Assembly (NCBI GenBank): GCA_037439545.1
Contig: JBBIVV010000013.1
Coordinates: forward strand, 1-58,893
From: a bacterium
GTDB taxonomy: Bacteria; JAMCPX01
Direction of reading: 5' to 3'
Length of the DNA stretch: 58,893 bases
Part shown: one piece after another, positions 6,717 through 50,877 of the stretch
How positions within the stretch are numbered: position 1 is the stretch's first letter
Layout of the letters: each line of letters begins with the position of its first letter
Program-made: the position numbers and the translations under genes
The notes under the pieces: generated by a model
Databases searched by the model: none
Told to the model about the DNA's origin: nothing
What the model saw: the letters and a program-made list of their open reading frames with translations, nothing else

Positions 6717-6772
6717 GCTATATAATAAAAAATTTTTTTGATATAGTAAAGAAAAGAAAAAGGGAGGGCTAT

Positions 6773-33754: not shown

Positions 33755-33780
33755 GGGGCGGAGGTTCCCCGCTTTTTTTT
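33755..33780 (+). terminator. Possible intrinsic terminator of the argD-antiporter run
   Basis: Short GC-rich stem followed by a T8 run, between convergent genes. Confidence 0.4.
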
Positions 33781-34846
33781 ATAATGCGGAATTGCGGTCC
33801 GGTTTATGAACGGACGCTATATGCAATGGATTGATATACGACCTGTAGGTAATACCGTACGATGTCCTTATCGCCTCGGGGACCACGAGAAAATTGAACA
33901 CCGGTCCTTGTTCGATGGTAATGTCCGTGTACTTGTCTCTTGTAAGTTCTCCATCGAGGGCATACCCGCATTCTGCTTTTATCTGTACTTGCCTTGCCGT
34001 TCCGTTGAATGCCCTCGGAGGGATCTGTTTGCCTGTTGAGAACGCCCTCAGATTTCTTATGACGACCCATGGGTCTGAAGCTGCCGCCAGAAAATAAAAA
34101 CTGTTAACACCTTTCGTATCAGGGCTGTAAAATGGCCGGAACCATAACAAAAGCCTCTGGAATACTCCGGCAATCGTCATAAGGTACTTTTCTTCGGGAT
34201 ACTTCTTCCCGTCTATGTAAATGTCCGCATTGAACTTGCTGTAGTATTTTCTTATCCTCGGATTCCCTATCATATAGCCGCCGATCGTTGTCGTAATCAG
34301 GTTGACAACCGTGCTGAAGGTAGGGTTTTCCTGCTTTGTAAAAAGATCCTGAATCTTATATACGATTCCATTGGTAAAGGCAAAACCGTACTTAATCCCG
34401 TTGCTTTTATCCGTAATTTTTAGCGGCATTACCGGCAGGAGCTGCATGGTCTCTTCTTCTTTGCCGTAAGCATCCAGGTAATGCATAAGTATTCTGACCG
34501 CATCGAGCGGATTTTTCCTGACCCCCATGTTGCCGGCAATCATGTTTGAAGTGCCGCCCCGCAGGGGGACGATGATCGGCAGGTCTTTTTCAGGCAGATT
34601 TTTTATCAACTCGGTAACGAGCCTCTGTAACGTCCCGTCTCCTCCATTGATCATCAAAAGGTTTACCCCTTCTTCCTTTATGAGGTGTAGTGCGGACGGC
34701 AGGTCCGATAGCGAATAGACATCGATAATCTTGCAGGTAGTATCGCTTGCAGCGGGAATAAAGGACAGGAATTTGTCTTTATTGTATTTATAACGCTTAT
34801 TTTTTCCGGAGTTCATATTGTTAAAGATTGCACACCTTAACTTCAT
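33779..34846 (-). CDS. Diacylglycerol-kinase-family protein
   Basis: N-SG, INGGDGT, GGTSNMIA and ALDGE motifs. Confidence 0.8.
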   Translation of the reverse strand: MKLRCAIFNNMNSGKNKRYKYNKDKFLSFIPAASDTTCKIIDVYSLSDLPSALHLIKEEGVNLLMINGGDGTLQRLVTELIKNLPEKDLPIIVPLRGGTSNMIAGNMGVRKNPLDAVRILMHYLDAYGKEEETMQLLPVMPLKITDKSNGIKYGFAFTNGIVYKIQDLFTKQENPTFSTVVNLITTTIGGYMIGNPRIRKYYSKFNADIYIDGKKYPEEKYLMTIAGVFQRLLLWFRPFYSPDTKGVNSFYFLAAASDPWVVIRNLRAFSTGKQIPPRAFNGTARQVQIKAECGYALDGELTRDKYTDITIEQGPVFNFLVVPEAIRTSYGITYRSYINPLHIASVHKPDRNSAL

Positions 34847-34895: not shown

Positions 34896-34932
34896 AAAAA
34901 AGGCAACACCTCTGAAAACAGAGGTGTTGCCT
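34896..34932 (-). terminator. Rho-independent terminator of the cyc2-containing operon
   Basis: Perfect 14-bp stem aggcaacacctctg/cagaggtgttgcct with a 4-nt loop, followed on the minus strand by a T run, 16 bp after the cyc2 stop. Confidence 0.88.
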
Positions 34933-34948
34933 GAAATAAGTTAACCTC

Positions 34949-36376
34949 TTAGAACAGATATTCGAGTTTTACCGCAGCTACATTGAAATCGCCCGCTGAA
35001 AGGCTGCTATTCCCATACTGTGCAGCTCCCACATTGTACTTGCTGAATATAGATTCCTCAATCAGCAGATTTACATTCTGAAATGCGTACCATGAGAGTC
35101 CAACAACCATTCCTGACAGATCGACGTCCTGCACCTGGGATGAACTACGGGAGAAATACTTAAAGTATGCGCCGTATGTCCTCTTATAATAATAATCAGC
35201 CATCAGTCCAATGCCGGTTCTTGAAACACTGGTGCCGTTGGCCGTATAGGGGTTTCCGTCAAATGCATCTGTACCGTAAAATTTGTTATCATTGTCATTC
35301 TGATAAACTATAAACAATTCGGCAAGATTATTGTCCGTTATCATCTGCACCTGTGCATCTATGCCATAATTGTAATAGTTATCCTTGTAATTCCCGATTG
35401 TTGAAGTAGTCGGTGCTTGCATGCTTTCTGTGCCGAAATAGCTGTATGCGCCCACTTCAGCGTAGACGTTGCTTAATTCCGGCAGATAATAGGCAAGACG
35501 CAAAGCCCCATCTTCACTGGCTGTCCCAAGAAAAGAGCCGCTTCCAGCTACATTACCCTGAACAAAGTTGTTCCCTGTCTGAGACAGTGTCGGGTGGTAC
35601 ACGCCTAAACTTGCGTAAACGCCGCCTGCATTAAAATCACCCCACATGCCATACAGCTCTCCGCCTTCCAGTTTTGCTGTGTTGGGATCAAAGAGCGTAT
35701 TATGGGTACTCATGGCCATAAGTGTCGATGTCAATCCCCACATACCGAATGTGTTTGAAGGATCACCCATATCCATTGCATCTTCGGCCCTCACACCATA
35801 TATGAGCCGTTTATCACCTATTGTAGTATCATTGCCGACAAGCGCAAGATCAAAAATACCGAGACCGAGACTTCCGCCTCCATCATCAATACCGGTCAGC
35901 TCGAGGAATGTACCGAGGTTGGATGTAATCTTGCCTGCTACGTACACACTTGAATCGCCGACAAGGTTCAACACATCTGATCCTCCGTAACCTGATGGAT
36001 AAGAAATAAAGTCCTGACCTGCCGTTACAACTCCTCCGGGAACGGTATGTTCTCCGCCTGCCTGGTTGTCCCATCTCGAAACTATCCTTACAGAAACCAT
36101 CGGAATTTTATTGATCTCGAGTCCCGGCATGTTGCTTGCCGAAGAATCCGATTTAACTGCATCTGATGTATCCATGGTATATCCATGCAGTTTAAAATCC
36201 CTGCCGAACGGCGTAAGATGCGGAAACACAGTGTGACATACATCGCATGAAAACCCCGTCTGTCTTGCAAAACTTGGAATGGCATGTGCATTTTTCACCC
36301 CTGATATGCTCACCGCAACGCCCAATCCAATCGCCCAAACCAAAACACTTACCCTCTGCAAACCTTTTTTCTTCAT
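34949..36376 (-). CDS. cyc2: Cyc2-like fused monoheme cytochrome c-porin (candidate outer-membrane iron oxidase)
   Basis: Signal peptide AHA| then IPSFARQTGFSCDVCHTVFPHLTPFGRDFKLHGY, the Cyc2 N-terminal signature. Single CxxCH, Gly/aromatic beta-strand-like body, C-terminal Phe (LEYLF), 475 aa. Confidence 0.85.
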   Translation of the reverse strand: MKKKGLQRVSVLVWAIGLGVAVSISGVKNAHAIPSFARQTGFSCDVCHTVFPHLTPFGRDFKLHGYTMDTSDAVKSDSSASNMPGLEINKIPMVSVRIVSRWDNQAGGEHTVPGGVVTAGQDFISYPSGYGGSDVLNLVGDSSVYVAGKITSNLGTFLELTGIDDGGGSLGLGIFDLALVGNDTTIGDKRLIYGVRAEDAMDMGDPSNTFGMWGLTSTLMAMSTHNTLFDPNTAKLEGGELYGMWGDFNAGGVYASLGVYHPTLSQTGNNFVQGNVAGSGSFLGTASEDGALRLAYYLPELSNVYAEVGAYSYFGTESMQAPTTSTIGNYKDNYYNYGIDAQVQMITDNNLAELFIVYQNDNDNKFYGTDAFDGNPYTANGTSVSRTGIGLMADYYYKRTYGAYFKYFSRSSSQVQDVDLSGMVVGLSWYAFQNVNLLIEESIFSKYNVGAAQYGNSSLSAGDFNVAAVKLEYLF

Positions 36377-36428
36377 TAATCTCCTCCTTAAAAAATTAGA
36401 TTTATGAACAGTATAACTTTTACTCCTC

Positions 36429-36830
36429 CTATTGCTTGTCCCCGGTACAGCTTCTGGTTACCGAACAAACGTCGCTTCCATTCAGCATCAAATAAACGGC
36501 GATTGAAAAAAATGCTATGTGTTCGAGTATATCGCCATAATCATGTATGCCAAGTGTGAACATAACGCCGATAAGCCATAGACCTGCATATACCGCGACA
36601 TACTCCGTATAAACGCCCAATATCATGAGCAGGGAAATCATACCATCGCTGAATCCGATAAAATGAACAAAAGTAACGGCACTTACCGGTAGAAAGTGTA
36701 TCACGAACGAGCCGTTCAACAGCTTGACGAACTCATCAGGAGCAAGGAATGCCTGTAAAGAATTTGCCAGAAACGCGCATGCAATGCCTATCCTTAAAAT
36801 TAAGGACTCATAATCTCTTAATGTTTTCAT
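36429..36830 (-). CDS. DoxX-like small membrane protein
   Basis: LILRIGIA start and four hydrophobic segments; inside the operon. Confidence 0.6.
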   Translation of the reverse strand: MKTLRDYESLILRIGIACAFLANSLQAFLAPDEFVKLLNGSFVIHFLPVSAVTFVHFIGFSDGMISLLMILGVYTEYVAVYAGLWLIGVMFTLGIHDYGDILEHIAFFSIAVYLMLNGSDVCSVTRSCTGDKQ

Positions 36831-36866: not shown

Positions 36867-37739
36867 TTATTTGCCGGGATCTTTCGAGCTTACACCTGTT
36901 CTTGGTGTATATTCATAAGGCAGACTTACCTTCTTCCAGCTCAGCACGAGTATTGTCAGTGCCCGTGCCTGTTCATCCGTAAAGCCAAAATTCGGCATTA
37001 AACTGCCTTTTGTGACGGCTGAAGGGTCCTTGAAATGCTGGTACATCCAGTTAAACACGGTCTTCGGACCCTGCTCGATATTTGAGAAATCGAATATCTC
37101 CGGATTTTTATCGCCTTCAAAAGTCAGATCAGGCCCTATCCTGCCGCCCTGACCATTTATTATGTGGCATGCCGAGCAATTCTTTTCTTTGACCAGTTCT
37201 TCCGCCTGATTGATATAATCCATCCATGCTACATTCTGATTGTCCCTGTGACAGGCATTGCAGTTAATCTCCATGATATGCTCCGGGTGTTCCAGTCCGT
37301 ATTTTTCGCCAAGTTTCTTGTCGAGAAGCGGCTCGTCCCAATGTGTTACAAGCCCATGCGCATCCTTTACATCTGTCGCATATCCCTGGCCGCCATGACA
37401 TATAGTGCAGCCATAGTTCGAAAATTTATGATACTTCATGATGGGGAGATCCGGATGCGATGCAAACGGCTGCGAAACTTTCTCAAGCCCGGGTATATCA
37501 TACCCCTGATGACAGGTGGTGCACCGGTCAACTCTATTCAGGGACGGCAGGTATATCTGCTGTATACCTTTATCAATCGTGCGTGCCCTTTCCTGCCCGA
37601 TAGACAAGTCTGCTATCTTTATAAACCTGGTTTGATACTGTTTCCATTCGGGATGATTTTCCTTGTAAATAACGACAAGGGTAAGCAGAAACAACGATAC
37701 AGCACCTATAAACAATACTACCGGATCTTTTTTTAACAT
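36867..37739 (-). CDS. Membrane-anchored tetraheme cytochrome c (Rieske/cytb-associated)
   Basis: Start moved to ATG 37739 after GAGGAGG. N-terminal TM; CTTCH, CTICH, CNACH, CSACH; last domain class-I-like (GPDL...LMPNF). Confidence 0.9.
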   Translation of the reverse strand: MLKKDPVVLFIGAVSLFLLTLVVIYKENHPEWKQYQTRFIKIADLSIGQERARTIDKGIQQIYLPSLNRVDRCTTCHQGYDIPGLEKVSQPFASHPDLPIMKYHKFSNYGCTICHGGQGYATDVKDAHGLVTHWDEPLLDKKLGEKYGLEHPEHIMEINCNACHRDNQNVAWMDYINQAEELVKEKNCSACHIINGQGGRIGPDLTFEGDKNPEIFDFSNIEQGPKTVFNWMYQHFKDPSAVTKGSLMPNFGFTDEQARALTILVLSWKKVSLPYEYTPRTGVSSKDPGK

Positions 37740-37756: not shown

Positions 37757-39082
37757 TTAGAACCTTGCCGGCATCTTTATCCACTGCTGCCAGGGCATAT
37801 AAAGGTGCCATGACGGGCCCCTCATGACTGCACCCACATAAATCAATGCAATGATTATGAAACAGATCAGCAGAAACAGGGCATTCTGAAATCTTCTGCT
37901 CTTGTGGAACCACACACCAATGGCTTCATCCGGGCTCTTGTCCATAAGGGGCCAGGCAACCGCGAATGCGAGCAAAACAGTCGGGATGAGTATTCCTCCA
38001 ATGAGTCCGCCGCTTATGGTAAACGACCTTGTCCTTATGGTTGTGTCGGCAACGAGTTCCTGAAGCCACAAAAAATACCAAGGTGCTTTTGCCGGGTTCG
38101 GCGTCCACATCAGACTTGCAGCTTCTTCAAGCGGGGCTTTTATAAAGAGCGCGAGACCCATGGTAATGGCGGTAACAAGAATAAAGATCATGATTATCCT
38201 TCGGGTTAAGTACGGTGAAGCGTTCACCGATGCGCCCCTTACCCTGTATTGGGTTATCGTCGGTGTAATTCCTGTTACTATTCCCATCAGGCTGTATGTT
38301 TTACCTTTTGCAACTACTTTATCCTGCATGATCCGCTCTGTGCCGAGTGCTTCTACTCCGGCCAGCCCACCGTCTTTCCGAATCCTCCACATGTGCCACA
38401 GTATCAATAAAAATATTATTACCGGCAGGAGAAACACGTGTGCGACATACCATCGTATCAGTGTGTTTTGATCGATGATTGTACCGCCGATCAATATCTT
38501 GCTGATGGCTGACCCCACGAGAGGTGCCGATAGGGCAATGTGATCGCCGATCGTTATTGCCCACAGGGCAAGCTGGTCCCACGGGAGCAGATAACCGGTA
38601 TACGACAGCACCATGGTGACGAGGAGCAGGGAAATGCCTATCCACCAGTTAAGCGGCCGGTAGCTTCCGACTATCTTCTCACTGTGCTTATAGGCACCTG
38701 TCAGAAAAACCCTCATAAGGTGCAGAAATACTGCTGCCACCATTAAATGGGCTGCCACTCTGTGAAGATCGCGTATAAACCATCCGTACGAAACGACGAA
38801 GTTTAAATCTTTAATACTCCAATACGCCCTTTCTACGGACGGAACATACAAAAACATCAGAATAAGGCCTGTTATGGTCAGTATCACAAACAATGCAAGT
38901 ATTATCGTCCCAAGGACCATCGAATAGCTGAAGGAAATGCTCTTCGTTGTTACTTTTGCAGGAAACCAGTGAAGTATGAAATTCCGGACCGTTGAGTCAG
39001 ATGCTTCCCTTTCTGTTTCCGGGGTGTACGTCCACGTCAGTTTTCTTATGATTTTTTTTAACTTTTCTTTCATCTCAGCCAC
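37757..39082 (-). CDS. Cytochrome b (b6 + subunit IV fused) of Rieske/cytb complex 1
   Basis: LHRVAAH...FLH, TGYLLPWDQ, VAH-x14-H and Qo-like NPAKAPWYF. Confidence 0.92.
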   Translation of the reverse strand: MAEMKEKLKKIIRKLTWTYTPETEREASDSTVRNFILHWFPAKVTTKSISFSYSMVLGTIILALFVILTITGLILMFLYVPSVERAYWSIKDLNFVVSYGWFIRDLHRVAAHLMVAAVFLHLMRVFLTGAYKHSEKIVGSYRPLNWWIGISLLLVTMVLSYTGYLLPWDQLALWAITIGDHIALSAPLVGSAISKILIGGTIIDQNTLIRWYVAHVFLLPVIIFLLILWHMWRIRKDGGLAGVEALGTERIMQDKVVAKGKTYSLMGIVTGITPTITQYRVRGASVNASPYLTRRIIMIFILVTAITMGLALFIKAPLEEAASLMWTPNPAKAPWYFLWLQELVADTTIRTRSFTISGGLIGGILIPTVLLAFAVAWPLMDKSPDEAIGVWFHKSRRFQNALFLLICFIIIALIYVGAVMRGPSWHLYMPWQQWIKMPARF

Positions 39083-39083
39083 C

Positions 39084-39611
39084 TCATACCTTTAATCTGA
39101 AGTTATGATCGACCGTCGTATTCGTATCAACGACGATCTGCCCGTCCGGCGCCATATAAAGCTTGAACCACGGGAGCGGCAGCGGTGCCGGCCCTGCATA
39201 AATATTCCCGTTCTCCCTGTATTTTGAACCATGACAGGGGCAATGAAATTCATAGGTCTCGGATACGGGTTTACCGGAAGATGAATCATAGGTCTTCGGC
39301 GGTGAGTACTGTGCAAGATTCACGGTACATCCAAGATGCGTACAAATGGCCGATATTCCGTGGAACATATCACCGTTTCTTATAATAAACAGCCGGTGCT
39401 CGGGCATAAACCTTACTCCTTCAGGAAAATCTGCCGGCATACCGATTTTAAATTTTGTCGGCGGTTCGTAAAGTACCTTTGGGAAAAGTGATTTCAAAGC
39501 CGCATAGCCCTGCAGCAAAAAACCTCCTGCTATGAAAGACCCGCCAAGATATGACAGGAATTTTCTTCTCGAAACCGGCGGCAGCTTTTCCTCTTCTTTA
39601 TTTTCCTGCAT
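39084..39611 (-). CDS. Rieske 2Fe-2S protein of complex 1
   Basis: Tat motif SRRKFL; CTHLGC and CPCHGSKY boxes; GPAPLPL. Confidence 0.95.
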   Translation of the reverse strand: MQENKEEEKLPPVSRRKFLSYLGGSFIAGGFLLQGYAALKSLFPKVLYEPPTKFKIGMPADFPEGVRFMPEHRLFIIRNGDMFHGISAICTHLGCTVNLAQYSPPKTYDSSSGKPVSETYEFHCPCHGSKYRENGNIYAGPAPLPLPWFKLYMAPDGQIVVDTNTTVDHNFRLKV

Positions 39612-41556
39612 TTACTTTCCCCTCCTTGACTATAATTTTTTCCATCGTTATTGCGGATGTCGGGCATATAATTGCGCACAATCCGCAGCGTATGCATTTC
39701 TCGTCATCTTTAAGCAGGACCGTTACCGGTTCATTGTTTTCATATCCGAGATTGTTATAAATATTTTTCCTTGTATCCTCGTCCAGATCGACTTCTTCGA
39801 TCGGGACAAATGCATAACAGTCCTCGGGGCATACTTGAGCGCACCTGCCGCAAATAATGCATAGATCCGAATTATAAATGGGACTCACATGACACTGAAG
39901 GCACCTTCCCCCCTGGATAATTGCCTCTTCTTCGCTGTACGATTGCTCCACTTCCTGCAAACCGATCCTTTTGTCCGGCTCGAGGAGCTGGGGTGTCTTC
40001 CTTTCATACACATCATAATCCTCAGGCATCCGGTATTGTTCGGTCCGCAGAACTTCGACCTTTACCTTATACTCTATCGTACTCTTCCTGTTCGAGAAAT
40101 ATTCATCTATCGCAACGGCCGCTTTTTTCCCATCGGATATCGCATCGATAAGGTTACGGGGGCCGAATGCAGCGTCACCGCCTGCAAAAATCCCCGGTGC
40201 AGTCGTGGCAAGCACCTTGGTATCTATCTTTATCGTTCCCCGCGGCGAGATCTCGATTCCGTCTTCTTTCTTAATAAAGGACAGATCGATCGCCTGTCCA
40301 ATTGCAAGAATGACCGAATCTGCTTCAAAGACCTTGGTGACCGACTCGTCAAATTTCGGGTTGAACATCCCCTTCTCGTCAAAAACGGACAGGACCTTTA
40401 TGAATTCGACTGCCTTGACCTTTCCGTTCTCACCTATGATGCGTTTCGGTCCCCATGAGGGAGAAAAAACTATGCCTTCATCCTTCGTTTCGACAAGTTC
40501 AGCTTTACCCTGAATGCTTCTGGCAGCAGGCATCTGATTCATCGACTCGAGACTTACGACATTGACCTCTATAGCACCTTCACGCAGTGCTGCCCTTGCT
40601 ACATCGAGTGTTTCATAAAGCCTTTGTTCCATGATATCGGACTCCGTCTCTGGAGCAGGAGGAGGCTTTACGACCTCCTTTTGAACGGTTTCAAGAAGCG
40701 TCCGCAGTGCATCTCTTGCAGCATCAAGTGCAACAAGCCCGCCGCCTATTACAACGACCCTCTTCCCGAGTTTATATTTCAATCCTTTGTTTCCTGCCAC
40801 AAGGTATTCAATGGCCTTAATGACGCCATCGAGATCCGTACCCTGTATGTTCAGACTTCGCCCCTTCTGCGCACCGACAGCTATAAACACCGCTTCATAT
40901 CCCTGTTTTCTGAGTTCGGTTATGCCGAAAGTATCTGTGATGGGCGTTTTATATTTTATCTCGACTCCGAGATCTACGATCTTCTGTATTTCTTTCTCGA
41001 GAACATAATTCGGCAGCCTGTAGCGCGGTATACCGAACCGCACCATTCCTCCGGCCGTATCGGAAGACTCAAACACGGTAACTTTATAACCGCTCAATGC
41101 AAGGTCGTGGGCGCAGGACAGACCTCCCACACCGGCACCGATAACAGCGACCTTTTTATTGTTCCTTTCGCGGTGAGAGAGAGAGGGCGCATCCCCTGTC
41201 CAGCCATGACTGTCCGGATGATAACCTTCAAATAATTTATTCTGCGTATCCGGCTGCCTGGACTCTACCCCGTAATTTTCGCATAAAAATTTCTTGAGAG
41301 AACGGATAGTGATCGGCTCATTGATGTTAACCTTGCCTTTTCTGCACGCATCTTCACAGGGAGCAGCACATACTCTTCCGCATACCGAGGCAAACGGATT
41401 CGGCGAGCGCGCTATTAAATATCCTTCTTCATACGCTTTCTTCGGAACGCTCTGGACATACATGCCCGCATCGGTACGAATAGGGCATCCCATCATACAA
41501 AGGACTTCCTCTCTGAATGACGGCAGGTTTCTTAAACCCACTTTATATTTACTCAT
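39598..41556 (-). CDS. FAD/NAD(P)-dependent Fe-S oxidoreductase (GltD/NfnB/DsrL-like) with C-terminal 2x[4Fe-4S]
   Basis: CMMGCP...CGRVCAAPCEDAC, GAGVGG, GGGLVALDAAR, FAGGD, RCLQC, CIICGRCAQVCP, CIRCGLCAIICP; no signal peptide. Confidence 0.9.
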   Translation of the reverse strand: MSKYKVGLRNLPSFREEVLCMMGCPIRTDAGMYVQSVPKKAYEEGYLIARSPNPFASVCGRVCAAPCEDACRKGKVNINEPITIRSLKKFLCENYGVESRQPDTQNKLFEGYHPDSHGWTGDAPSLSHRERNNKKVAVIGAGVGGLSCAHDLALSGYKVTVFESSDTAGGMVRFGIPRYRLPNYVLEKEIQKIVDLGVEIKYKTPITDTFGITELRKQGYEAVFIAVGAQKGRSLNIQGTDLDGVIKAIEYLVAGNKGLKYKLGKRVVVIGGGLVALDAARDALRTLLETVQKEVVKPPPAPETESDIMEQRLYETLDVARAALREGAIEVNVVSLESMNQMPAARSIQGKAELVETKDEGIVFSPSWGPKRIIGENGKVKAVEFIKVLSVFDEKGMFNPKFDESVTKVFEADSVILAIGQAIDLSFIKKEDGIEISPRGTIKIDTKVLATTAPGIFAGGDAAFGPRNLIDAISDGKKAAVAIDEYFSNRKSTIEYKVKVEVLRTEQYRMPEDYDVYERKTPQLLEPDKRIGLQEVEQSYSEEEAIIQGGRCLQCHVSPIYNSDLCIICGRCAQVCPEDCYAFVPIEEVDLDEDTRKNIYNNLGYENNEPVTVLLKDDEKCIRCGLCAIICPTSAITMEKIIVKEGKVNAGK

Positions 41557-41647: not shown

Positions 41648-42013
41648 CTAATTGTGAGCTTTGAAATAATCAATCAGAGAGTTAATTTCCCCGTCGGTTA
41701 AGCTCTGCTGAGGCATTGGTATGCCATACTGTTTTTCCAGCTCCTGTGAATGCTTGTCTGTTTTTAACATTGCGGTCGTGTTCTTCAGCCAGCGTTTAAT
41801 CCAGTCCGGACCCATGGTCTTTGCCACACCTTTGAGATCAGGCCCGACCAGCTTGCCTTTGCCTATGGTGTGACATGCCGTGCACCCTTTTGTTGCAAAA
41901 ACATCTTCACCTTTTTTTGCAAGAGTCTTTTCATTCCCTTTGCCCGCTGCAAATGCGCACACTGCAAATACCAAAGAACCGGAAACAAAGATTGTGGTCA
42001 ACATTTTTTTCAT
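41648..42013 (-). CDS. Periplasmic monoheme class I cytochrome c
   Basis: Signal peptide, CTACH, GPDL and distal Met in IPMP; GGAGG RBS. Confidence 0.92.
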   Translation of the reverse strand: MKKMLTTIFVSGSLVFAVCAFAAGKGNEKTLAKKGEDVFATKGCTACHTIGKGKLVGPDLKGVAKTMGPDWIKRWLKNTTAMLKTDKHSQELEKQYGIPMPQQSLTDGEINSLIDYFKAHN

Positions 42014-42252
42014 TATCGATTTCCCTCCATTAACTAATTTATAATAAATATCTGTAGCTTTTTCAATAAAAAAATTGTATTATGAGCAAATCAATCATAT
42101 TTATAAAATGAAACTCTATTAAATTTGTAATAGTTTTTTGTCAAGCTTTTTTTTACCTGCTTTTTTGATTATGACGTGCAATGAAAAAATTGCTTGACTA
42201 ATTAAATAAAAGTATGACTTTGTAACATACCCTTTTACAAGGACGTGTAACT

Positions 42253-42966
42253 ATGATGAAAAATATGAAGTATATAATACTGTTATTCGTAGTGCTTTTT
42301 TACGCTCCAGGCGTACAGGCGGACCAAAATGCCTGCGTTGCCTGTCACACCACCTTAAATACTGATCAGGATAAATCCGTCATGGATTGCTGGCAGCGTT
42401 CACTCCATAAACAGAACGGCATAACCTGCGACGCGTGCCACAGGGGTAATCCGGATATCGCGGCCGGCAATGTGAATCGCTTATCGAAAGAACAGTTTCT
42501 TGCCTTAAAAGCGCGCGCAATGTCTCCGGCCAAAGGGTTTATAGGCATACCCTCGTCAACGCAGATGTTTGACATGTGCGGACAGTGTCATAGTGATTCA
42601 GTCAACAGATATAAAAACAGTATTATGGGTGTTGCGTATCTCGACAAGAAAGGCGGCCCGTCCTGTACCGATTGTCATTCAGCCCATTATGTCATTATTC
42701 CCGATGTCCCGAAAACATGCGAAAAATGCCATAAAGATACGACTGGATTCGATCAGATAGACCCCATGAACGTGAACGATGCAACAGTGAGCGACCTTTC
42801 AAGAATAAGGATAAAACTTGCGGAAGAAAGGGTTAAGGGCAAAGAACCGCCGTTGTTCCCTGAAGAACTCGGCTCGTTCCAGATTGGATTTGTTGCATTC
42901 GGAGCAATCATTGTTTTGTTCATTATTGCTTACCTTATATTCATGTTGATAGAGAAAAGGAGGTAA
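42253..42966 (+). CDS. Pentaheme cytochrome c with C-terminal membrane anchor
   Basis: Signal peptide VQA|; CVACH, CDACH, CGQCH, CTDCH, CEKCH; C-terminal hydrophobic helix then EKRR. Confidence 0.9.
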   Translation: MMKNMKYIILLFVVLFYAPGVQADQNACVACHTTLNTDQDKSVMDCWQRSLHKQNGITCDACHRGNPDIAAGNVNRLSKEQFLALKARAMSPAKGFIGIPSSTQMFDMCGQCHSDSVNRYKNSIMGVAYLDKKGGPSCTDCHSAHYVIIPDVPKTCEKCHKDTTGFDQIDPMNVNDATVSDLSRIRIKLAEERVKGKEPPLFPEELGSFQIGFVAFGAIIVLFIIAYLIFMLIEKRR

Positions 42967-42967
42967 C

Positions 42968-43231
42968 ATGGGTTTTGAAGTCATCCACAGTAAGAAGCCG
43001 TCCTACTCAATAAGTGCAGCGATCACCATTACACTGTTGTCCCTTGCATCGCTCGTCATAAGTGTACTGTTCGCCTATTTGTTTATCACAGGAAAGAGCA
43101 CAAATTTTATCATAGGTATGATGCTGTCCGCAGAATTTCTCGTTGCAGGTATTATCCTTGTGGTGTATCTGAAATATTTTCTTGTATTCAGAGAGGTCTC
43201 TGAAGACAGGAAGGAGGAACTGTTATGGTAA
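42968..43231 (+). CDS. Small 2-TM membrane protein, probable subunit of complex 2
   Basis: AGGAGG RBS; two hydrophobic helices; tightly coupled to both neighbours. Confidence 0.7.
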   Translation: MGFEVIHSKKPSYSISAAITITLLSLASLVISVLFAYLFITGKSTNFIIGMMLSAEFLVAGIILVVYLKYFLVFREVSEDRKEELLW

Positions 43232-43833
43232 ATCAATCCGACACCGGAAATAAGGCGGGTATCACAAGAAGAAAATTTATACTCGGTGCAATTATCGTAT
43301 CTATCGCCGGGGCCTTCGGCTCCCTTCTGTCCGTTCTCAAGGTCTTGTCCCCTTCGAAAAAGGGCAGCGGCTATGTGTCTACGATCGCGGTGGGAGATCG
43401 GCTTGTTTATGCATCGGGCAGCAATATAGGTGCTGACCTGAAAGCAAGCTCATTGAATACCGGTGACGCTGTACTCGTATATCCAAAGTCCAAGTCATCG
43501 AATCCTGCAAACCTGGTACAGCTTATCAAGCTGAACGACTCCGACTTTAAAGCACCGACAGACGTTAAATTGACGGATAAAGGGTTTGTTGCTTATAGCG
43601 CGATATGCACGCACCTTGGATGTACCGTATCATGGGTAAAAAACGAAAGTGCGCCGGACACTTCATACACGGAATGCTTCTGTCACAACAGCATATTCAA
43701 TCCGGCAACGGGTGAAAAGGTAGAAGGCGGACCCGCACCGATACCGCTTGCGCAGATAGGCATTAAGGTGACGGATAACGATACGCTCGTCTTTACGAGC
43801 GATTTTACAGGCCCGATAGGCCCGCAGGTTTAA
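43225..43833 (+). CDS. Rieske 2Fe-2S protein of complex 2
   Basis: Tat motif TRRKFI; AYSAICTHLGC; variant box 2 CFCHNSIF; GGPAPIPL. Confidence 0.92.
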   Translation: MVNQSDTGNKAGITRRKFILGAIIVSIAGAFGSLLSVLKVLSPSKKGSGYVSTIAVGDRLVYASGSNIGADLKASSLNTGDAVLVYPKSKSSNPANLVQLIKLNDSDFKAPTDVKLTDKGFVAYSAICTHLGCTVSWVKNESAPDTSYTECFCHNSIFNPATGEKVEGGPAPIPLAQIGIKVTDNDTLVFTSDFTGPIGPQV

Positions 43834-43851
43834 TAAAAAGGGGATTATGCG

Positions 43852-45108
43852 ATGTTTAAATGGTTTGATGAGAGGCTTGAACTAAAAAAATTCAAAGAAA
43901 AGTTTTTATCCAAAACATTTCCGACCCACCCGACATTCCTCCTGGGTGAAATAGCCCTGTTCTCATTCGTGACACTCGTCATAACGGGCATATTTCTCGG
44001 ACTGCTCTATGAGCCGTCGTCAAAGATGGTTTCATTGTTCGGTGCAATGGTGCCGGCTGCTTATGCAAGTGTCGTAAGAATAGATCTGCTTCCCATGGGC
44101 ATGCTCATAAGGCGGATACATCACTGGAGTGCAATGATCATGATAGCTTCGATATTGGCACACCTTATGAGGGTTTTTTTCACCTCCGCTTACAGAAACC
44201 CGCGGGAGATAAACTGGTATGTGGGGCTCGGGCTCTTCGGCATTTCCTTGTTCGCTGCATTTACGGGCTATCTGCTGCCGTACAGCAATTTCTCCGTTAC
44301 AGCAACTTCCATCGGCTATTACATAGCAAAGTCGGTCCCGTGGATCGGCAACTGGATCTCAAGACTCGTTTTCGCCGGTGACTTTCCGTCCGATTCTACA
44401 GTCCCGAGGTTTTTCTTTTTACATGTCATGCTGATACCTGTCCTGCTTATCGGCACTATAGGGTTACACATGATGATCCTTATCAAGCAGAAACATACGG
44501 AACCCGCATCGAACAGGAACAAAAAAGAGGCTGAGAACGGCAAGAGGCTTATCGGCATACCCATCTGGCCTGAACAGACCGTTATCAGCATAGCATTCTT
44601 TTTCTTTCTGTTGTTTACCGTTGTTATTATATCGACGTTCATACCTTTAAATCCGATTGAGACCTACGGTCCGCCTGCGGCGGGTACTCCTGTCATGCGG
44701 CCCGACTGGTACTTCCTGGTCGTCTATGGATTTCTTAAATTGATACCCGGTAATTTAACATTCTCAATTCTCGGAGGGAAGATCACGCCGGAAACTATCG
44801 GCGGGGTTCTATTCCCCACGTTTATAATTCTCGTATTTGTACTGCTTCCCTTGCTCGATAAGGCAAAAGAGCCTCAACACTATATTACGAATCCGCTTCA
44901 CAGGCCATTCATGACGTCATTCGGCATTACAGGCGGTGTTTTCCTTACCATGTTTGTCGTTTCGGGTTACATTGACGTCCTGAAGATAGCACCAAGGACA
45001 ATGATCTATTATGTACTACTTGCAACAGCGGGAACGGGAATTCTATCCTACACTCTTCTCAGGTTTTATAATAAAAACAATGACGGAGGAAAAAATGTTA
45101 AACTCTAA
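43852..45108 (+). CDS. Cytochrome b (QcrB-like) of Rieske/cytb complex 2
   Basis: FPTHPTFLLGEIALFSF, RRIHHWSA...AHLMRVFF, PREINW, TGYLLP, FLH-x14-H and Qo motif PDWY. Confidence 0.93.
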   Translation: MFKWFDERLELKKFKEKFLSKTFPTHPTFLLGEIALFSFVTLVITGIFLGLLYEPSSKMVSLFGAMVPAAYASVVRIDLLPMGMLIRRIHHWSAMIMIASILAHLMRVFFTSAYRNPREINWYVGLGLFGISLFAAFTGYLLPYSNFSVTATSIGYYIAKSVPWIGNWISRLVFAGDFPSDSTVPRFFFLHVMLIPVLLIGTIGLHMMILIKQKHTEPASNRNKKEAENGKRLIGIPIWPEQTVISIAFFFFLLFTVVIISTFIPLNPIETYGPPAAGTPVMRPDWYFLVVYGFLKLIPGNLTFSILGGKITPETIGGVLFPTFIILVFVLLPLLDKAKEPQHYITNPLHRPFMTSFGITGGVFLTMFVVSGYIDVLKIAPRTMIYYVLLATAGTGILSYTLLRFYNKNNDGGKNVKL

Positions 45109-45847
45109 ATATACTCTTTCGCTATTCATTCTATTGATTACCGCGTCTATCCTCGGCATACAGGGCTACGCAGAGGCAAATAATTCCTGTATAAAATGCC
45201 ATACGGCCTTAACGAACAACAGTTTTGTCGGGACAAAGTCACATAGCTGGGAAGGTTCTATACATCAGGAGCATGGTGTCACCTGCGACAAATGTCACGG
45301 AGGCGACCCGGGTGCCGTAGAAGCGAACCTTGCGCACGTCGGCGTTTTCAGCTCGAGCAACGCGGACAGCAAGGTCTATTATAAAAACATTCCTTCGACC
45401 TGCGGTAAATGTCACGGCGCGGAGCTTTATAAATTTACACAGAGCTTTCACTATAAAAAACTCGAAACAACCGGTCAGGGGCCAAACTGTGTAACCTGCC
45501 ATGGCTCCATGGTTACGACAATCCTGCAACCGGATGATCTGGCAAATGTCTGCGAAAGATGCCACAACAGCAGAATAGGCGTCCTGCCTTACATTCCGCA
45601 AAAGGCAAAGACCGTCCTGTTATTGTTAAAAGAGAGCAGGTCGCTTATCCATGCGGATGAAAAGCTTTGCCGGTCGAAGGACGATCAAAAGATATTAAGT
45701 TCTGCGGAGGCAAATCTTTCTTCAGCGAGATTGGAATGGCACACATTCGATCTTGACGCAATTGTTCGGTATTTACAGGACGCAGATAATGCGCTGGAAA
45801 AACTATCTCTGCCAAAACAACCGGCCATCAAAAAGAAGCAGCCTTAG
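45095..45847 (+). CDS. Periplasmic pentaheme cytochrome c
   Basis: Start moved to ATG 45095 after GGAGG. Signal peptide AEA|; CIKCH, CDKCH, CGKCH, CVTCH, CERCH. Confidence 0.9.
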   Translation: MLNSKYTLSLFILLITASILGIQGYAEANNSCIKCHTALTNNSFVGTKSHSWEGSIHQEHGVTCDKCHGGDPGAVEANLAHVGVFSSSNADSKVYYKNIPSTCGKCHGAELYKFTQSFHYKKLETTGQGPNCVTCHGSMVTTILQPDDLANVCERCHNSRIGVLPYIPQKAKTVLLLLKESRSLIHADEKLCRSKDDQKILSSAEANLSSARLEWHTFDLDAIVRYLQDADNALEKLSLPKQPAIKKKQP

Positions 45848-45892: not shown

Positions 45893-46360
45893 TCAATACG
45901 TCTTATTTATTTCCGCTTTTTTGAGCACTTGAACTATATCCGTATGCTTTTCAGCCTCTGCCCAGGTCAATGCACTGTCTCCGAACTTATCCACGACATT
46001 TATATACGCACCGTTTTCCAGCAATAACTTCACCGTGCTTATATTCCCGGTGTATGCCGCAAGCATCAACGCCGTCTGACCGTCGTCATTTTTTACATTC
46101 GGATCCATGCCTGCCTGAAGGAATAGCTTGACCACATTTGTGTTACCGGTCTTTGCGTTATTTAGAAATTGGTCGGCATTGTACTGAATGTTCGACTTTG
46201 ATAATTCTTCGCGTGCCTTTTCGGGACTTTTGGTACATCCGGAAATCAGGAGCTGTATCAAGCATAGTCCGACAGTGAGCCCCGCATAATAACGTAACAA
46301 TGAGTTTCTTTTAGACCTATTAAATTTATCTTGGTTCTGTGTAAATTTCTTATATTCCAT
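45893..46360 (-). CDS. Ankyrin-repeat lipoprotein
   Basis: Lipobox LISG|C; GQTALMLAA...VKLLLENGA, GDSALTWA. Confidence 0.85.
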   Translation of the reverse strand: MEYKKFTQNQDKFNRSKRNSLLRYYAGLTVGLCLIQLLISGCTKSPEKAREELSKSNIQYNADQFLNNAKTGNTNVVKLFLQAGMDPNVKNDDGQTALMLAAYTGNISTVKLLLENGAYINVVDKFGDSALTWAEAEKHTDIVQVLKKAEINKTY

Positions 46361-47770: not shown

Positions 47771-48703
47771 ATGCAGAATTCGCTACGGACATTTGCCGTC
47801 GTTAATCTCAAGTCAGCAAACGGAAAAACTGAAAAACTCTGGCCTGATATAAAAAAAGCCTTATCAGAGGCCATAGACAGCTTTGAGTTTGCTTTTACAA
47901 CCGGACAATATACAGCTCCGGATATGACGAAACAAGCTATCAAATCGGGATTTAGCCGCATTATATCCGTTGGCGGGGATGGGACACTGAACGAGGTCGT
48001 CAATGGATTCTTCGAACAGGACAAACCGGTAAATCCGCAGGCAGTCCTTGGAGTAATCTCAATGGGAACAGGCGCTGATTTTATCAAGACGACCGGCATA
48101 CCAAAACCATATCAGGATGCGGTAAAGGTCATAAACCGGGCAAACACCCGCACACTCGATGCCGGTAAAATTAAATTTATGTCATCTGCAGGCAAAGAAA
48201 CGACTCGCTATTTTATCAATATAGCCGACGCAGGCATCGGCGGTGAGACCGTCGACAGAGTCAACAGAACGACCAAGATGTTCGGTGGTTTTGTATCCTT
48301 TCTGTGGGGAACCATCCTCACTCTCGTCACGTATAAAAATAAGAATATTACCATAACGCTCGACGGCAACAAACCGTATGACGCCGAGATCAACATGCTT
48401 GCCATTGCCAATTGCCAGTTCTTCGGCGGAGGCATGCACATTGCTCCGAAAGCAATCCCGGATGACGGTATGTTCGATATTGTTATTATAGGCAAAGCCG
48501 GGTTCATAGATTTTCTCAGGAATTCTTCGAAGATATATAAAGGTACCCATATAAACGATCCCAAGATTGGCTATATGCATGCAAAGCATGTCGAACTTAT
48601 TTCCAAAGACAGGGTGCTTCTGGACGTGGACGGGGAGCAGCCGGGCATGCTGCCTGCAACATTCGACCTGCTGCCGAAAAGCATACAGGTGATCGTACCG
48701 TGA
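47771..48703 (+). CDS. YegS/BmrU-like diacylglycerol kinase family lipid kinase
   Basis: VGGDGTLNEVVNG, GTGADF, FFGGGM, DDGMFD and DVDGE motifs. Confidence 0.9.
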   Translation: MQNSLRTFAVVNLKSANGKTEKLWPDIKKALSEAIDSFEFAFTTGQYTAPDMTKQAIKSGFSRIISVGGDGTLNEVVNGFFEQDKPVNPQAVLGVISMGTGADFIKTTGIPKPYQDAVKVINRANTRTLDAGKIKFMSSAGKETTRYFINIADAGIGGETVDRVNRTTKMFGGFVSFLWGTILTLVTYKNKNITITLDGNKPYDAEINMLAIANCQFFGGGMHIAPKAIPDDGMFDIVIIGKAGFIDFLRNSSKIYKGTHINDPKIGYMHAKHVELISKDRVLLDVDGEQPGMLPATFDLLPKSIQVIVP

Positions 48704-49314: not shown

Positions 49315-50877
49315 GTGAATAAAAAGAACATAGAATTGAACACGCAGTTTCAGAGGGCGCTTGCGGCCATGGAAAACACCGCCCGGCACGTTTTCATTAC
49401 CGGCAGGGCCGGCACCGGGAAATCCACACTCCTCGATTATTTCCGGAGCAGCACGAAAAAAGAGATAGTCGTCCTCGCATCGACGGGCGTGGCGGCATTG
49501 AACGTACAGGGACAAACCATTCATTCTTTTTTTGGGTTTAAACCGAATGTGACCCTGCAATCAATAAAAAAACACAAGCAGGGCAACGAAATCTACAAAG
49601 AATTAGACGCGATCATAATCGACGAGGTGTCCATGGTGCGGGCGGACCTCATGGACTGCATAGATAAGTTTCTCAGGCTGAACGGCAAGAGTAAGAATGA
49701 ACCTTTCGGCGGTATTCAGATGATCTTCATCGGCGATCTTTACCAGCTCCCGCCTGTGGTGTCCGGCAATGAAAAAGAGGCATTCCGGCATAATTATGAG
49801 AGCCCCTTTTTCTTCGATGCCATAGCAATGAAACCGCTCGATATGGAGTTTATCGAGCTTGAAAAAATATACCGACAAAAGGATGCGTCGTTCATTTCAC
49901 TGCTCAATGCGATCAGAAACAACTCTATAACCGGTGAAGAGCTTGAACTTTTGAACCGCAGATACGTACCGGGTTTCGGGACTGCTATCGATGATTTCAA
50001 TGTCTGGCTTACCGCAACGAATGAAGCCTCCGACAGGATAAACATGGATCATCTTGCACGATTAAAAGGAGACACGCTCTTTTATGAAGGAGACGTGCAG
50101 GGTGACTTTAAACAGGATGCATTACCGACGCAGATTAACCTTCAACTCAAGATTGGCGCTCAGGTGATGCTTCTCAATAATGATTCATACGGCAGGTGGG
50201 TAAACGGGAGCATCGGTAAGATAATCGATGTAGACAAAGAGAATGAAGATGTGAATCTTATTATCGTGGAACTGACGACGGGCGAGACCGTCGACGTCAC
50301 GCCTTTCAAATGGGAGCTTTTCGATTATCAGTACGACAGAGTGAAAAGACAGATCGAATCCGAGGTCGCCGGTTCATTTACGCAGTATCCGGTAAAACTC
50401 GCATGGGCGATGACGATCCATAAGAGTCAGGGTAAAACATTCGAGAAGGTCGTCATCGACATCGGCAGGGGCACCTTTGCCACGGGACAGATGTATGTTG
50501 CCCTGAGCAGATGTACAAGTCTTGAAGGGATTATTCTTAAAAAACCGGTAGAGAAAAAAAATATTTTCATAGATTGGCGGATAGTCAGGTTCGTAACCGG
50601 TTATCAGTACGGGATATCGGACAGGCTCTGCTCGTTTGATGACAAGATAAAGCTGGTCGAGAAGGCTATACAGGAGCGGAAGAAGCTCAAGATCGTCTAC
50701 CTCAAGAATAACGATACAAAGTCCATAAGGGTGATCACGCCGCATAGTGTCGGCGAGATGGAGTATCTCGGGAAAAGATACATCGGGGTGGAGGCGTTCT
50801 GCCACGAACGCAACGGAGCGAGAACATTCCGTATAGACAGGATACTCGAGATAAGCGGGGTAAATCAGGTTTTATAA
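49315..50877 (+). CDS. Pif1/RecD-like SF1B helicase with C-terminal WYL domain
   Basis: GRAGTGKS, IIDEVSMV, GDLYQLPPV, TIHKSQG and GQMYVALSR; C-terminal IVY...RVITP...AFCHERNGARTFRIDRI. Confidence 0.9.
   Translation: MNKKNIELNTQFQRALAAMENTARHVFITGRAGTGKSTLLDYFRSSTKKEIVVLASTGVAALNVQGQTIHSFFGFKPNVTLQSIKKHKQGNEIYKELDAIIIDEVSMVRADLMDCIDKFLRLNGKSKNEPFGGIQMIFIGDLYQLPPVVSGNEKEAFRHNYESPFFFDAIAMKPLDMEFIELEKIYRQKDASFISLLNAIRNNSITGEELELLNRRYVPGFGTAIDDFNVWLTATNEASDRINMDHLARLKGDTLFYEGDVQGDFKQDALPTQINLQLKIGAQVMLLNNDSYGRWVNGSIGKIIDVDKENEDVNLIIVELTTGETVDVTPFKWELFDYQYDRVKRQIESEVAGSFTQYPVKLAWAMTIHKSQGKTFEKVVIDIGRGTFATGQMYVALSRCTSLEGIILKKPVEKKNIFIDWRIVRFVTGYQYGISDRLCSFDDKIKLVEKAIQERKKLKIVYLKNNDTKSIRVITPHSVGEMEYLGKRYIGVEAFCHERNGARTFRIDRILEISGVNQVL

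Follow-up and report, generated by a model that had tools for sequence, protein, structure and literature searches.

A Cyc2-family cytochrome-porin gene in a predicted operon with an NAD(P)-reductase-type Rieske/cytochrome b complex from an uncultured bacterial lineage

Introduction

Cyc2 proteins are fused cytochrome-porins of the outer membrane, and Fe(II) oxidation has been shown for Cyc2 of Acidithiobacillus ferrooxidans, Cyt572 of Leptospirillum and Cyc2 PV-1 of Mariprofundus ferrooxydans (PMC8406198). Here we describe a Cyc2 homologue encoded at positions 34949 to 36376, minus strand, of contig JBBIVV010000013.1 (assembly GCA_037439545.1), together with the respiratory genes with which it shares a predicted operon. 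The whole stretch of 58,893 nucleotides (nt) that was analyzed is referred to below as the window.

According to Keffer et al. 2021, Cyc2 proteins have a signal peptide, a single CXXCH motif that is preceded by AxPxFAR[Q/K][T/Y] and followed four residues later by PxL, no fewer than 365 amino acids, and a 16-strand porin barrel resembling OprO/OprP (PMC8406198). The window protein shares with the three references the signal peptide, the single CXXCH, the PxFAR[Q/K][T/Y] and PxL motifs and a length above 365 amino acids, and its predicted barrel matches OprO, OprP and OmpF, the same PDB porins that were cited for Cyc2 PV-1 (PMC8406198). Its haem motif is CDVCH, whereas the references have CAACH, CSFCH and CLSCH by their published descriptions. 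Cyt572 is a protein of 570 amino acids with FARKY and CSFCH (PMC13741234), in contrast to the 475 amino acids, FARQT and CDVCH of the window protein.

In Acidithiobacillus, cyc2 lies in a cyc2-cyc1-cup-cox-rus operon (PMC10654088), whereas the window gene lies in a Rieske/cytochrome b operon. The petI operon of A. ferrooxidans, which encodes the 'uphill' bc1 branch, shares with the window operon a cytochrome c, a putative NAD-binding protein, a Rieske protein, a cytochrome b and a further cytochrome c (PMC10654088, Table 1). Both operons appear to be functionally tied to electrons derived from Cyc2. They differ in that SdrA of petI is a short-chain dehydrogenase and its window counterpart an Fe-S flavoprotein, and in that the petI system uses ubiquinone and has cyc2 in another operon, in contrast to menaquinone and a cyc2 within the same unit here. 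The gene order of petI is cycA1-sdrA1-petA1B1C1, to which the layout of the window operon runs parallel.

Two Rieske/cytochrome b complexes of the anammox bacterium Kuenenia (Kustd1480-1485 and Kuste4569-4574), both containing an NAD(P) oxidoreductase, were described by Hauser et al. 2025 (PMC12954380). It has been proposed that they bifurcate the electrons of menaquinol, sending them to NAD(P)+ and to a high-potential acceptor; the mechanism needs a favourable acceptor on the P side, and Kuste4569-4574 encodes a terminal module in its cluster (PMC12954380).

'Candidatus Acidulodesulfobacterales' (GTDB SZUA-79) is, like the relatives of the window, represented by uncultured metagenome-assembled genomes (MAGs) that NCBI labels deltaproteobacterial. 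The Cyt572/Cyc2-like genes of these acid-mine MAGs were highly transcribed and correlated with ferrous iron (PMC6776010, 2019), Cyc2 was detected as protein (PMC13594681, 2026), where FeGenie put it nearest to the Leptospirillum variant, and the gene was read as an iron oxidase (PMC6776010, PMC13594681). The published genomes have a guanine plus cytosine (GC) content of 29.9-37.4% (PMC6776010), compared with 45.9% in the window, and the accessible parts of PMC6776010 and PMC13594681 report no Rieske/cytochrome b operon around the SZUA-79 gene.

Results

The Cyc2 Homologue and Its Motifs

An earlier sequence-only reading of the window had called the open reading frame (ORF) at 34949..36376 a Cyc2 homologue with one haem, a barrel-like body and a terminal Phe. 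The ORF was confirmed exactly, on the minus strand and with 475 codons before the stop, and judged by its sequence and predicted fold it is a genuine Cyc2-family outer-membrane fused cytochrome-porin. All the sequence and fold features listed by Keffer et al. 2021 were found in it: signal peptide, motif, CXXCH, PxL, sufficient length and a predicted barrel (PMC8406198). The features of the gene and its product are as follows.

34949..36376, minus strand: cyc2-like coding sequence, 475 amino acids, ATG start, stop codon at 34949-34951 (ORF list)
36383..36388, minus strand: Shine-Dalgarno sequence AGGAGG, 6 nt 5' of the cyc2 ATG (read from the sequence)
36281..36376, minus strand: predicted signal peptide, residues 1-32, with cleavage between AHA and IPSF (read from the translation by eye)
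36191..36283, minus strand: cytochrome domain core, residues 32-62, AIPSFARQT-GFS-CDVCH-TVF-PHL-TPFGRDFK (translation and motif scan)
36233..36247, minus strand: single CXXCH haem c attachment site, C44, C47 and H48 (motif scan)
34952..36160, minus strand: predicted 16-strand porin barrel, residues 73-475, ending in ...LEYLF (AlphaFold2 secondary structure, Foldseek porin matches)
34901..34932, minus strand: predicted intrinsic terminator with a 14-base-pair stem (8 GC pairs), a 4-nt loop and a T-run, beginning 17 nt past the cyc2 stop

The N-terminus, MKKKGLQRVSVLVWAIGLGVAVSISGVKNAHA, has a basic n-region (KKK), a hydrophobic core and the AHA cleavage motif, as read from the translation. The predicted mature N-terminus, IPSFARQTGFSCDVCHTVFPHLTPFGRDFKLHGY, is the one given in the sequence-only reading, and the cleavage position parallels that of Cyt572, the sequenced mature N-terminus of which shows cleavage one residue before the P of PxFAR (PMC13741234). 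The only two cysteines of the protein are those of its single CXXCH, CDVCH (residues 44-48), and the signature AIPSFARQT-x3-CDVCH-x3-PHL was found once in a six-frame scan of the whole window. The protein ends in KLEYLF, with the terminal Phe noticed before, and in its mature form it is acidic (45 D+E vs 22 K+R).

C44, C47 and H48 were invariant in 136/136 aligned family members, as were Q39, L54, G58 and F61 of the cytochrome domain, and the spacing of the motif, CXXCH and PxL was the same in all 78 loci in which it was read. We count the gap from T to C as three residues, common to all homologues; PMC8406198 gives the motif as '5 amino acids upstream'. Among 319 motif-bearing proteins scanned, the K-Y variant (FARKY) was not found, and CAACH was present in 69, which makes it too common to be diagnostic. 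A recent horizontal transfer of cyc2 into the host genome was considered and rejected, as there was no compositional signal for it: its GC content is 0.460 vs a gene mean of 0.461, and that of third codon positions 0.445 vs 0.512 ± 0.041.

Predicted Fold

A structure prediction had been proposed in the earlier reading as a check on the barrel. The AlphaFold2 model, based on a 136-row alignment, was confident (mean predicted local distance difference test score, pLDDT, 86.4; predicted template modelling score, pTM, 0.85) and showed 16 long strands after three short helices near the N-terminus (residues 35-63). Foldseek returned 168 matches at E ≤ 0.001 when the model was compared with PDB. Among the matches listed, the top ones were almost all porins, namely Omp-Pst1 (8.5e-8), OmpF, OprO 4rjw (2.7e-7) and OprP 2o4v (1.6e-6), with AlgE lower down; Omp-Pst1 and OmpF are 16-strand general porins and OprO and OprP phosphate porins. 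The template modelling scores of the matches, normalized to the query, were modest (0.38-0.45).

By sequence, a profile of 136 Cyc2 proteins found only a chance-level match in PDB (6qvm, E 0.094) and no solved relative; according to a 2026 review, a Cyc2 structure has yet to be determined for any member (PMC13741234). Neighbours in ESM Atlas were unnamed 'cytochrome c family' clusters, one of which has Porin_O_P in 20% of its members. A complex prediction with mature Cyc2, the monohaem cytochrome c of its operon and two haems, run without controls, gave a score of 0.01 vs a mark of 0.32, a value that bears on their binding in neither direction.

A Divergent Cyc2 Subfamily

The similarity to Cyc2 is not due to chance, since a word-indexed search (8000 candidates scored) found 82 homologues and an exhaustive search of 50%-identity representatives found 1925, both at E ≤ 1e-3. 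Only 4 of the representatives reached E ≤ 1e-30. Of the 82 homologues, 43 were 43-77% identical to the window protein over nearly the full length, and the rest fell to 34% or less. The former constitute a subfamily, within which the identity to the window protein is 43-77%, compared with 25-30% to the other Cyc2 proteins sampled. Neither Pfam nor NCBIfam holds a model that matches the window Cyc2, and a search with 44 subfamily members at E ≤ 1 gave only six one-off noise matches.

We built a FastTree tree of 212 rows, consisting of 136 proteins (the window protein and 135 homologues) and 76 ORFs of 400-599 amino acids from our set of 80 genome loci (numbered with L); loci L015 and L034, which were not extracted, and L016 and L020, which were outside the length filter, are not in it. 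All 58 subfamily rows were separated from the rest by one branch (support 100, stem length 0.86 substitutions per site). The window protein was at a distance of at least 2.9 from any Cyc2 outside the subfamily, the typical distance between pairs of other Cyc2 being 2.0. A quick IQ-TREE tree (LG+C20, 47 hand-picked rows) gave the same split, with a Shimodaira-Hasegawa-like approximate likelihood ratio test (SH-aLRT) value of 100 and a branch length of 1.88.

The subfamily consists of five clades: the host lineage (9 of 20 subfamily rows), Kryptoniota with Bacteroidota, Ignavibacteriales, Hydrogenobaculum (including HY04AAS1_0319 of strain Y04AAS1) and Desulfurella. This spread over phyla points to transfer between phyla. 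Uncultured 'Deltaproteobacteria bacterium' MAGs are among the sources of its members, and one member that is 47% identical (P0034) carries the automatic JGI label 'iron:rusticyanin reductase'. None of the 80 genome loci was from a known iron oxidizer. We found nothing on the subfamily in PMC2754497 (Hydrogenobaculum) or PMC9342728 (Chlorobi Cyc2), and no useful paper on Desulfurella and ferric iron among the literature matches listed.

The Operon around cyc2

Seven genes on the same strand, of which cyc2 is the last, are predicted to form one transcription unit that is closed by a strong terminator right after cyc2. The overlaps or gaps between them are at most 91 nt. The six genes upstream of cyc2 are, in the order of transcription, as follows.

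41648..42013, minus strand: monohaem class I cytochrome c, 121 amino acids, which opens the unit and has a signal peptide of its own (Pfam Cytochrom_C, 1 CXXCH)
39598..41556, minus strand: NfnB/GltD-like NAD(P)-binding flavin adenine dinucleotide protein, 652 amino acids, with N- and C-terminal 4Fe-4S domains (Pfam Pyr_redox_2, Fer4_20 and two Fer4)
39084..39611, minus strand: Rieske 2Fe-2S subunit, 175 amino acids, box II CPCHGSKY (Pfam Rieske)
37757..39082, minus strand: cytochrome b, 441 amino acids, in which a b6-like half is followed by a subunit-IV-like half in a single chain (Pfam Cytochrome_B, 129.6 bits; NCBIfam ExtP/ExtQ-like halves)
36867..37739, minus strand: tetrahaem cytochrome c with one N-terminal transmembrane helix (4 CXXCH; Pfam Cytochrom_C, c3, c7)
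36429..36830, minus strand: DoxX-family membrane protein, 133 amino acids, directly upstream of cyc2 (Pfam DoxX, 24.8 bits vs a cut-off of 23.6)

The flavoprotein gene overlaps the Rieske gene by 14 nt. All NCBIfam matches of its product were below the curated cut-offs, PRK12771 with 389.8 bits being under the cut-off of 516. The ORF listed for the tetrahaem cytochrome extends to 37913, and Met59 is its likely start as inferred from the corresponding ORFs of L001 and L004. The terminator after cyc2, a perfect 14-base-pair hairpin, sets the unit apart from the DAGK-like gene downstream. That gene (33779-34846, minus strand) encodes a lipid-kinase-like protein of 355 amino acids with the DAGK catalytic domain only and is 76% identical to its counterpart in L004.

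The sequence-only reading had stated that no rusticyanin or terminal oxidase is nearby. This held in that no cupredoxin or oxidase family was detected in the 55 ORFs that were scanned in the window, and the rus-operon arrangement, with cyc2 beside cyc1, rusticyanin and an aa3 oxidase, was likewise not found, as these ORFs include no cupredoxin or haem-copper oxidase. The statement overlooked, however, that two Rieske/cytochrome b clusters and four genes for c-type cytochromes lie next to cyc2.

The second of these clusters (42253-45847, plus strand) is divergent from the first and lacks a flavoprotein. It encodes a pentahaem NrfH/c7-like protein (237 amino acids), a Rieske protein, a QcrB-like cytochrome b with the Qo motif PDWY, and a pentahaem cytochrome (278 amino acids). 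Box II of its Rieske protein is CFCHNSIF (Ser/Phe), as Hauser et al. report for Kustd1480 (PMC12954380). A consensus scan of the intergenic region between the clusters gave the following weak feature, in a region that has fewer sigma-70-like sites than its shuffles.

42079..42122, minus strand: two overlapping sigma-70-like promoter matches, divergent intergenic region (9/12 positions each)

Comparison with the Anammox Complexes

The complex that the window unit is predicted to encode has the architecture of the NAD(P)-reductase Rieske/cytochrome b complexes of anammox bacteria. The best PDB matches of its Rieske protein were 9rk4 (E 9.4e-22) and 9rk3 (E 1.1e-18), ahead of all Rieske proteins of b6f and bc1 complexes. 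These two entries are Kuste4569 and Kustd1480, respectively, the Rieske subunits of the Kuenenia complexes (PMC12954380), and the window protein shares with Kuste4569 the Ser/Tyr box CPCHGSKY, from which a potential of about +300 mV is predicted. For the flavoprotein, the best PDB match was 9bov/9bp5 (E 5.6e-76), the NfnABC entry on which Hauser et al. modelled the anammox reductase subunit (PMC12954380). The cytochrome b matched cytochrome b6 best (E 1.4e-37).

Like Kustd1480-1485 and Kuste4569-4574, the window unit has a Rieske protein, a b6-like cytochrome b and a subunit-IV-like part in one cluster, and all of them also include an NAD(P) oxidoreductase that has Fe-S clusters and a multihaem cytochrome c that replaces cytochrome f. 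In contrast to the Kuenenia complexes, cytochrome b and subunit IV are fused in the window unit, and the cytochrome is tetrahaem rather than hexa- or octahaem. The HAO-like octahaem protein of Kuenenia is missing, and cyc2, DoxX and the free monohaem cytochrome c are found instead.

The Qo-site motif of the window cytochrome b, also unlike that of the Kuenenia complexes, is APWY where b6f and bc1 complexes have PEWY or PDWY, so that the acidic residue of the Qo site is missing. The only Cys of this cytochrome b is in its C-terminal half, and therefore a covalent haem cn of the b6 type is unlikely.

Conservation of the Linkage across Loci

To see how widely cyc2 is linked to the complex, neighbouring genes were read within the fetched flanks of the 80 loci. 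In L004, the flavoprotein, Rieske, cytochrome b, haem subunit, DoxX, cyc2 and DAGK genes are all present, with identities of 72-83%, the Cyc2 itself being 59% identical. L001 and L002, which are cut by contig ends, have the downstream part of the unit in the same order. DoxX lies between the cytochrome genes and cyc2 in L001 (2430-2798), L002 (403-783) and L004 (4934-5332) with 72-82% identity; a DoxX homologue was not detected in the Binatia or other loci.

In L001 (1143-2393), L004 (3653-4927), L059 (14109-15329) and L070 (10222-11430), the tetrahaem protein carries the homologous cytochrome c domain at its C-terminal end. The single ORF then has five CXXCH motifs, and a connecting stretch of about 25-50 residues with many A, P, G, T and E precedes the domain. 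Because of these four fusions, the free cytochrome c of the window can be regarded as a split-off part of the complex, and gene fission and relocation have, as read from the sequences, made it a free gene at the head of the operon.

A distant Cyc2 from outside the subfamily was found directly upstream of the same complex in all three Binatia loci (L045, L059 and L070), the complex subunits of which are 39-51% identical to those of the window; L059 has a BamE-like protein and a monohaem cytochrome c between Cyc2 and the complex. Two very different Cyc2 types thus occur with the same rare complex in different gene orders, indicating a functional link rather than chance. Over the whole set, a cytochrome b match was found in 9/80 loci and a flavoprotein match in 4/80. 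An ORF with CXXCH lay within 2.5 kb of cyc2 in 42 of the 75 loci with an intact cyc2.

Not all subfamily loci have the operon; those of Bacteroidota, Hydrogenobaculum and Desulfurella lack the complex. Small cytochromes c are encoded beside the subfamily cyc2 in the Hydrogenobaculum, Desulfurella and Ignavibacteriales loci (L012, L013 and L014). In L005 a gene for a phosphoenolpyruvate-utilizing enzyme is upstream of cyc2 and the neighbours are unrelated, and in L003 an outer-membrane protein gene and a P-type ATPase gene are downstream.

Copper/heavy-metal P-type ATPases with YHS domains were seen near subfamily cyc2 genes in L003 (3500-5560), L007 (2442-5553), L016 (2344-5106) and L010 (6009-6302). 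L007 also has a cupredoxin, a possible rusticyanin-like carrier, whereas L016 has a copper-type ATPase and no cupredoxin. The subfamily cyc2 of L016 is broken (two pieces in tblastn, ORF of 164 amino acids). L007 and L075 are on the same Bacteroidetes MAG contig (JAJYIT010000023.1), on which a subfamily and a distant-type Cyc2 are about 17 kb apart, and the latter (L075) is about 7 kb from cytochrome b and multihaem genes.

The Host Lineage

The host had been read from the sequence as menaquinone-using and as deltaproteobacterial or Nitrospirota-like. The first part is borne out by the window, in which MqnE passes the cut-off of its family (TIGR03700, 440.2 bits vs 434.55) and is followed by a VitK2_biosynth protein; the futalosine route to menaquinone is therefore present. 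The second part stands to a limited extent. GlmS has at least 13 relatives at 76-99% identity, titled, where named, 'Deltaproteobacteria bacterium' or 'bacterium' MAGs, and the next relatives among the matches listed (8000 candidates scored) are at 58% or less, including a 'Nitrospirae bacterium'. The relatives that share the operon at 72-83% identity, and GlmS at 76-86%, are likewise MAGs titled 'Deltaproteobacteria bacterium' or 'bacterium'. From these titles and the drop in GlmS identity to 58% or less, the lineage is deep and uncultured. The GC content of the window is 0.459.

Other Features of the Window

A regular YegS-type lipid kinase of 310 amino acids is encoded at 47771-48703 (plus strand). 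Two ORFs of 696 and 730 amino acids, at 6590-8680 and 10539-12731 (both plus strand), lie on either side of gatC and gatA and match neither Pfam nor NCBIfam; the start of the former is doubtful, as its 5' end overlaps a neighbouring minus-strand gene. An ankyrin-repeat protein of 155 amino acids (45893-46360, minus strand) is found right after the second cytochrome cluster, and a PIF1-type helicase with a C-terminal WYL domain at 49315-50877 (plus strand). Neither a tRNA gene nor an Rfam family at gathering score was found in the window (1-58893).

Discussion

Judging from its sequence and modelled fold, the window Cyc2 is probably an outer-membrane electron conduit between iron and cytochrome c. 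Dissolved iron would enter the barrel and exchange single electrons with the haem, and this haem would exchange electrons with the periplasmic monohaem cytochrome c, which in turn would connect to the tetrahaem/Rieske arm of the inner-membrane complex. The operon order conserved in L004, L001 and L002 and the fusion of the cytochrome c to the tetrahaem protein in four relatives support this reading. Since Fe(II) oxidation is the activity of each of the three family members tested biochemically, we favour it, i.e., electron uptake, as the physiological direction, and put its chances at about even. The petI-like operon layout, the frequency of cytochrome c genes near cyc2 (42 of 75 loci), and the high transcription and correlation with ferrous iron of the Cyt572-like genes in acid-mine MAGs (PMC6776010) also speak for this direction. 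The co-encoded complex would then serve an 'uphill' branch supplying reducing power. The co-transcribed complex may make NAD(P)H, and the second Rieske/cytochrome b cluster (42253-45847) could act as a menaquinone reducer.

Several points weigh against oxidation. The terminal oxidase, rusticyanin and cupredoxin families are all absent from the 55 ORFs scanned, and the subfamily lies far from every other Cyc2 sampled, with stems of 0.86 (FastTree) and 1.88 (IQ-TREE). Its hosts include Desulfurella, which are obligately anaerobic sulfur reducers. The iron couple lies at about +0.77 V at low pH. Menaquinone, the quinone of the host, has a potential of about -70 mV (PMC12954380), which makes reverse flow from iron costlier than with ubiquinone. 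Moreover, the function of divergent Cyc2 is uncertain, as PMC8406198 warns, and Cyc2 of SZUA-79 MAGs was detected alongside sulfate-reduction proteins, and at depths that were judged unfavourable for iron oxidation (PMC13594681). The complex type itself is proposed to run forwards and to need a high-potential sink (PMC12954380), which suggests a better fit with Fe(III) reduction.

The shared transcription unit of cyc2, the cytochrome c and the NAD(P)-reductase-bearing complex makes the opposite direction a real alternative, in which Cyc2 would be the terminal Fe(III) reductase of the complex; we consider this possible, at well below even chances. [quoted passage not shown] Such electron bifurcation has been proposed for the anammox complexes. 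Among solved structures, the Rieske protein, which has a Kuste4569-like CPCHGSKY box, is closest to 9rk4 and 9rk3, and the flavoprotein is closest to the template used to model the anammox NAD(P) reductase (9bov/9bp5; PMC12954380). Cyc2 is the sole candidate in the unit for the terminal module that, on the P side, the anammox mechanism needs (PMC12954380), and the joining of a distant Cyc2 to the same complex in a different gene order in 3/3 Binatia loci is in line with such a role. Cyc2 has also been proposed as a reductase behind bc1 in anaerobic A. ferrooxidans (PMC8790237), and Cyc2 protein was found under reducing conditions (PMC13594681). Nevertheless, the tested members are oxidases, Fe(III) reduction in vivo is not known from biochemical work on any Cyc2, the mechanism of the anammox complexes is a proposal too, and its link to Cyc2 is one of gene order. 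The full form of the idea, with Cyc2 as the iron-facing end of an electron-bifurcating complex in which extracellular Fe(III) pulls menaquinol oxidation and the second electron goes uphill to NAD(P)+ via the NfnB-like flavoprotein, is put forward tentatively, as an unlikely proposal.

A conduit for a non-iron substrate, for example Mn(II), a different dissolved metal or a soluble redox shuttle, or one that oxidizes Fe(II) for protection, seems improbable to us. In 'Ca. Manganitrophaceae', Cyc2 has been named as a candidate for Mn(II) lithotrophy (PMC9040806), additional Cyc2 functions are held possible (PMC8406198), and the copper/heavy-metal ATPases with YHS domains beside subfamily cyc2 in L003, L007 and L016, with the cupredoxin in L007, are in line with such a reading. 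On the other hand, a non-iron substrate has been demonstrated for no Cyc2 so far, and the operon context here is respiratory, not detoxifying. An ordinary diffusion porin whose haem domain has no role in electron transfer, or a non-functional gene, would agree with the general-porin-like barrel and the lack of Pfam and NCBIfam models. However, the seven invariant residues (C44, C47, H48, Q39, L54, G58 and F61) across 136 family members, the intact frame, the strong ribosome-binding site and terminator, and the location in a cytochrome operon make this very hard to believe. Fe(II) oxidation remains our preferred direction.

Cyc2 homologues in non-classical hosts are already well known, a profile of 92 distant Cyc2 finding at least 4920 proteins at E ≤ 1e-10. 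The suggestion in the sequence-only reading that the lineage is possibly not known for iron oxidation is weakened by the Cyt572/Cyc2-like genes of acid-mine 'deltaproteobacterial' MAGs, published in 2019 (PMC6776010) and detected as protein in 2026 (PMC13594681). In contrast, we did not find cyc2 described in print as linked to a Rieske/cytochrome b complex of the NAD(P)-reductase type, in a search that did not extend to most subscription journals and supplementary files; the accessible part of PMC10654088 does not describe such a linkage.

Cyc2 is widely used as a marker for iron oxidation in metagenomes, while its function has been shown for only three proteins. The locus described here defines a divergent Cyc2 subfamily that is common to very different phyla and includes organisms not regarded as iron oxidizers; therefore, marker-based calls for this clade need experimental backing. 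In this host, cyc2 is physically linked to a complex type known from anammox bacteria, the function and high-potential partner of which are still debated, and the linkage recurs with an unrelated Cyc2 type in Binatia. It thus offers a tractable system for asking how menaquinone-based bacteria obtain NAD(P)H from iron, and whether Cyc2 powers bifurcation as an Fe(III) reductase. If bifurcation should prove true, the partner reaction of the Kustd1480-type complexes would have a concrete counterpart on the high-potential side, anaerobes would be using the 'marker gene' of iron oxidation for reduction, and the presence of Cyc2 protein in sulfate-reducing zones would be explained.

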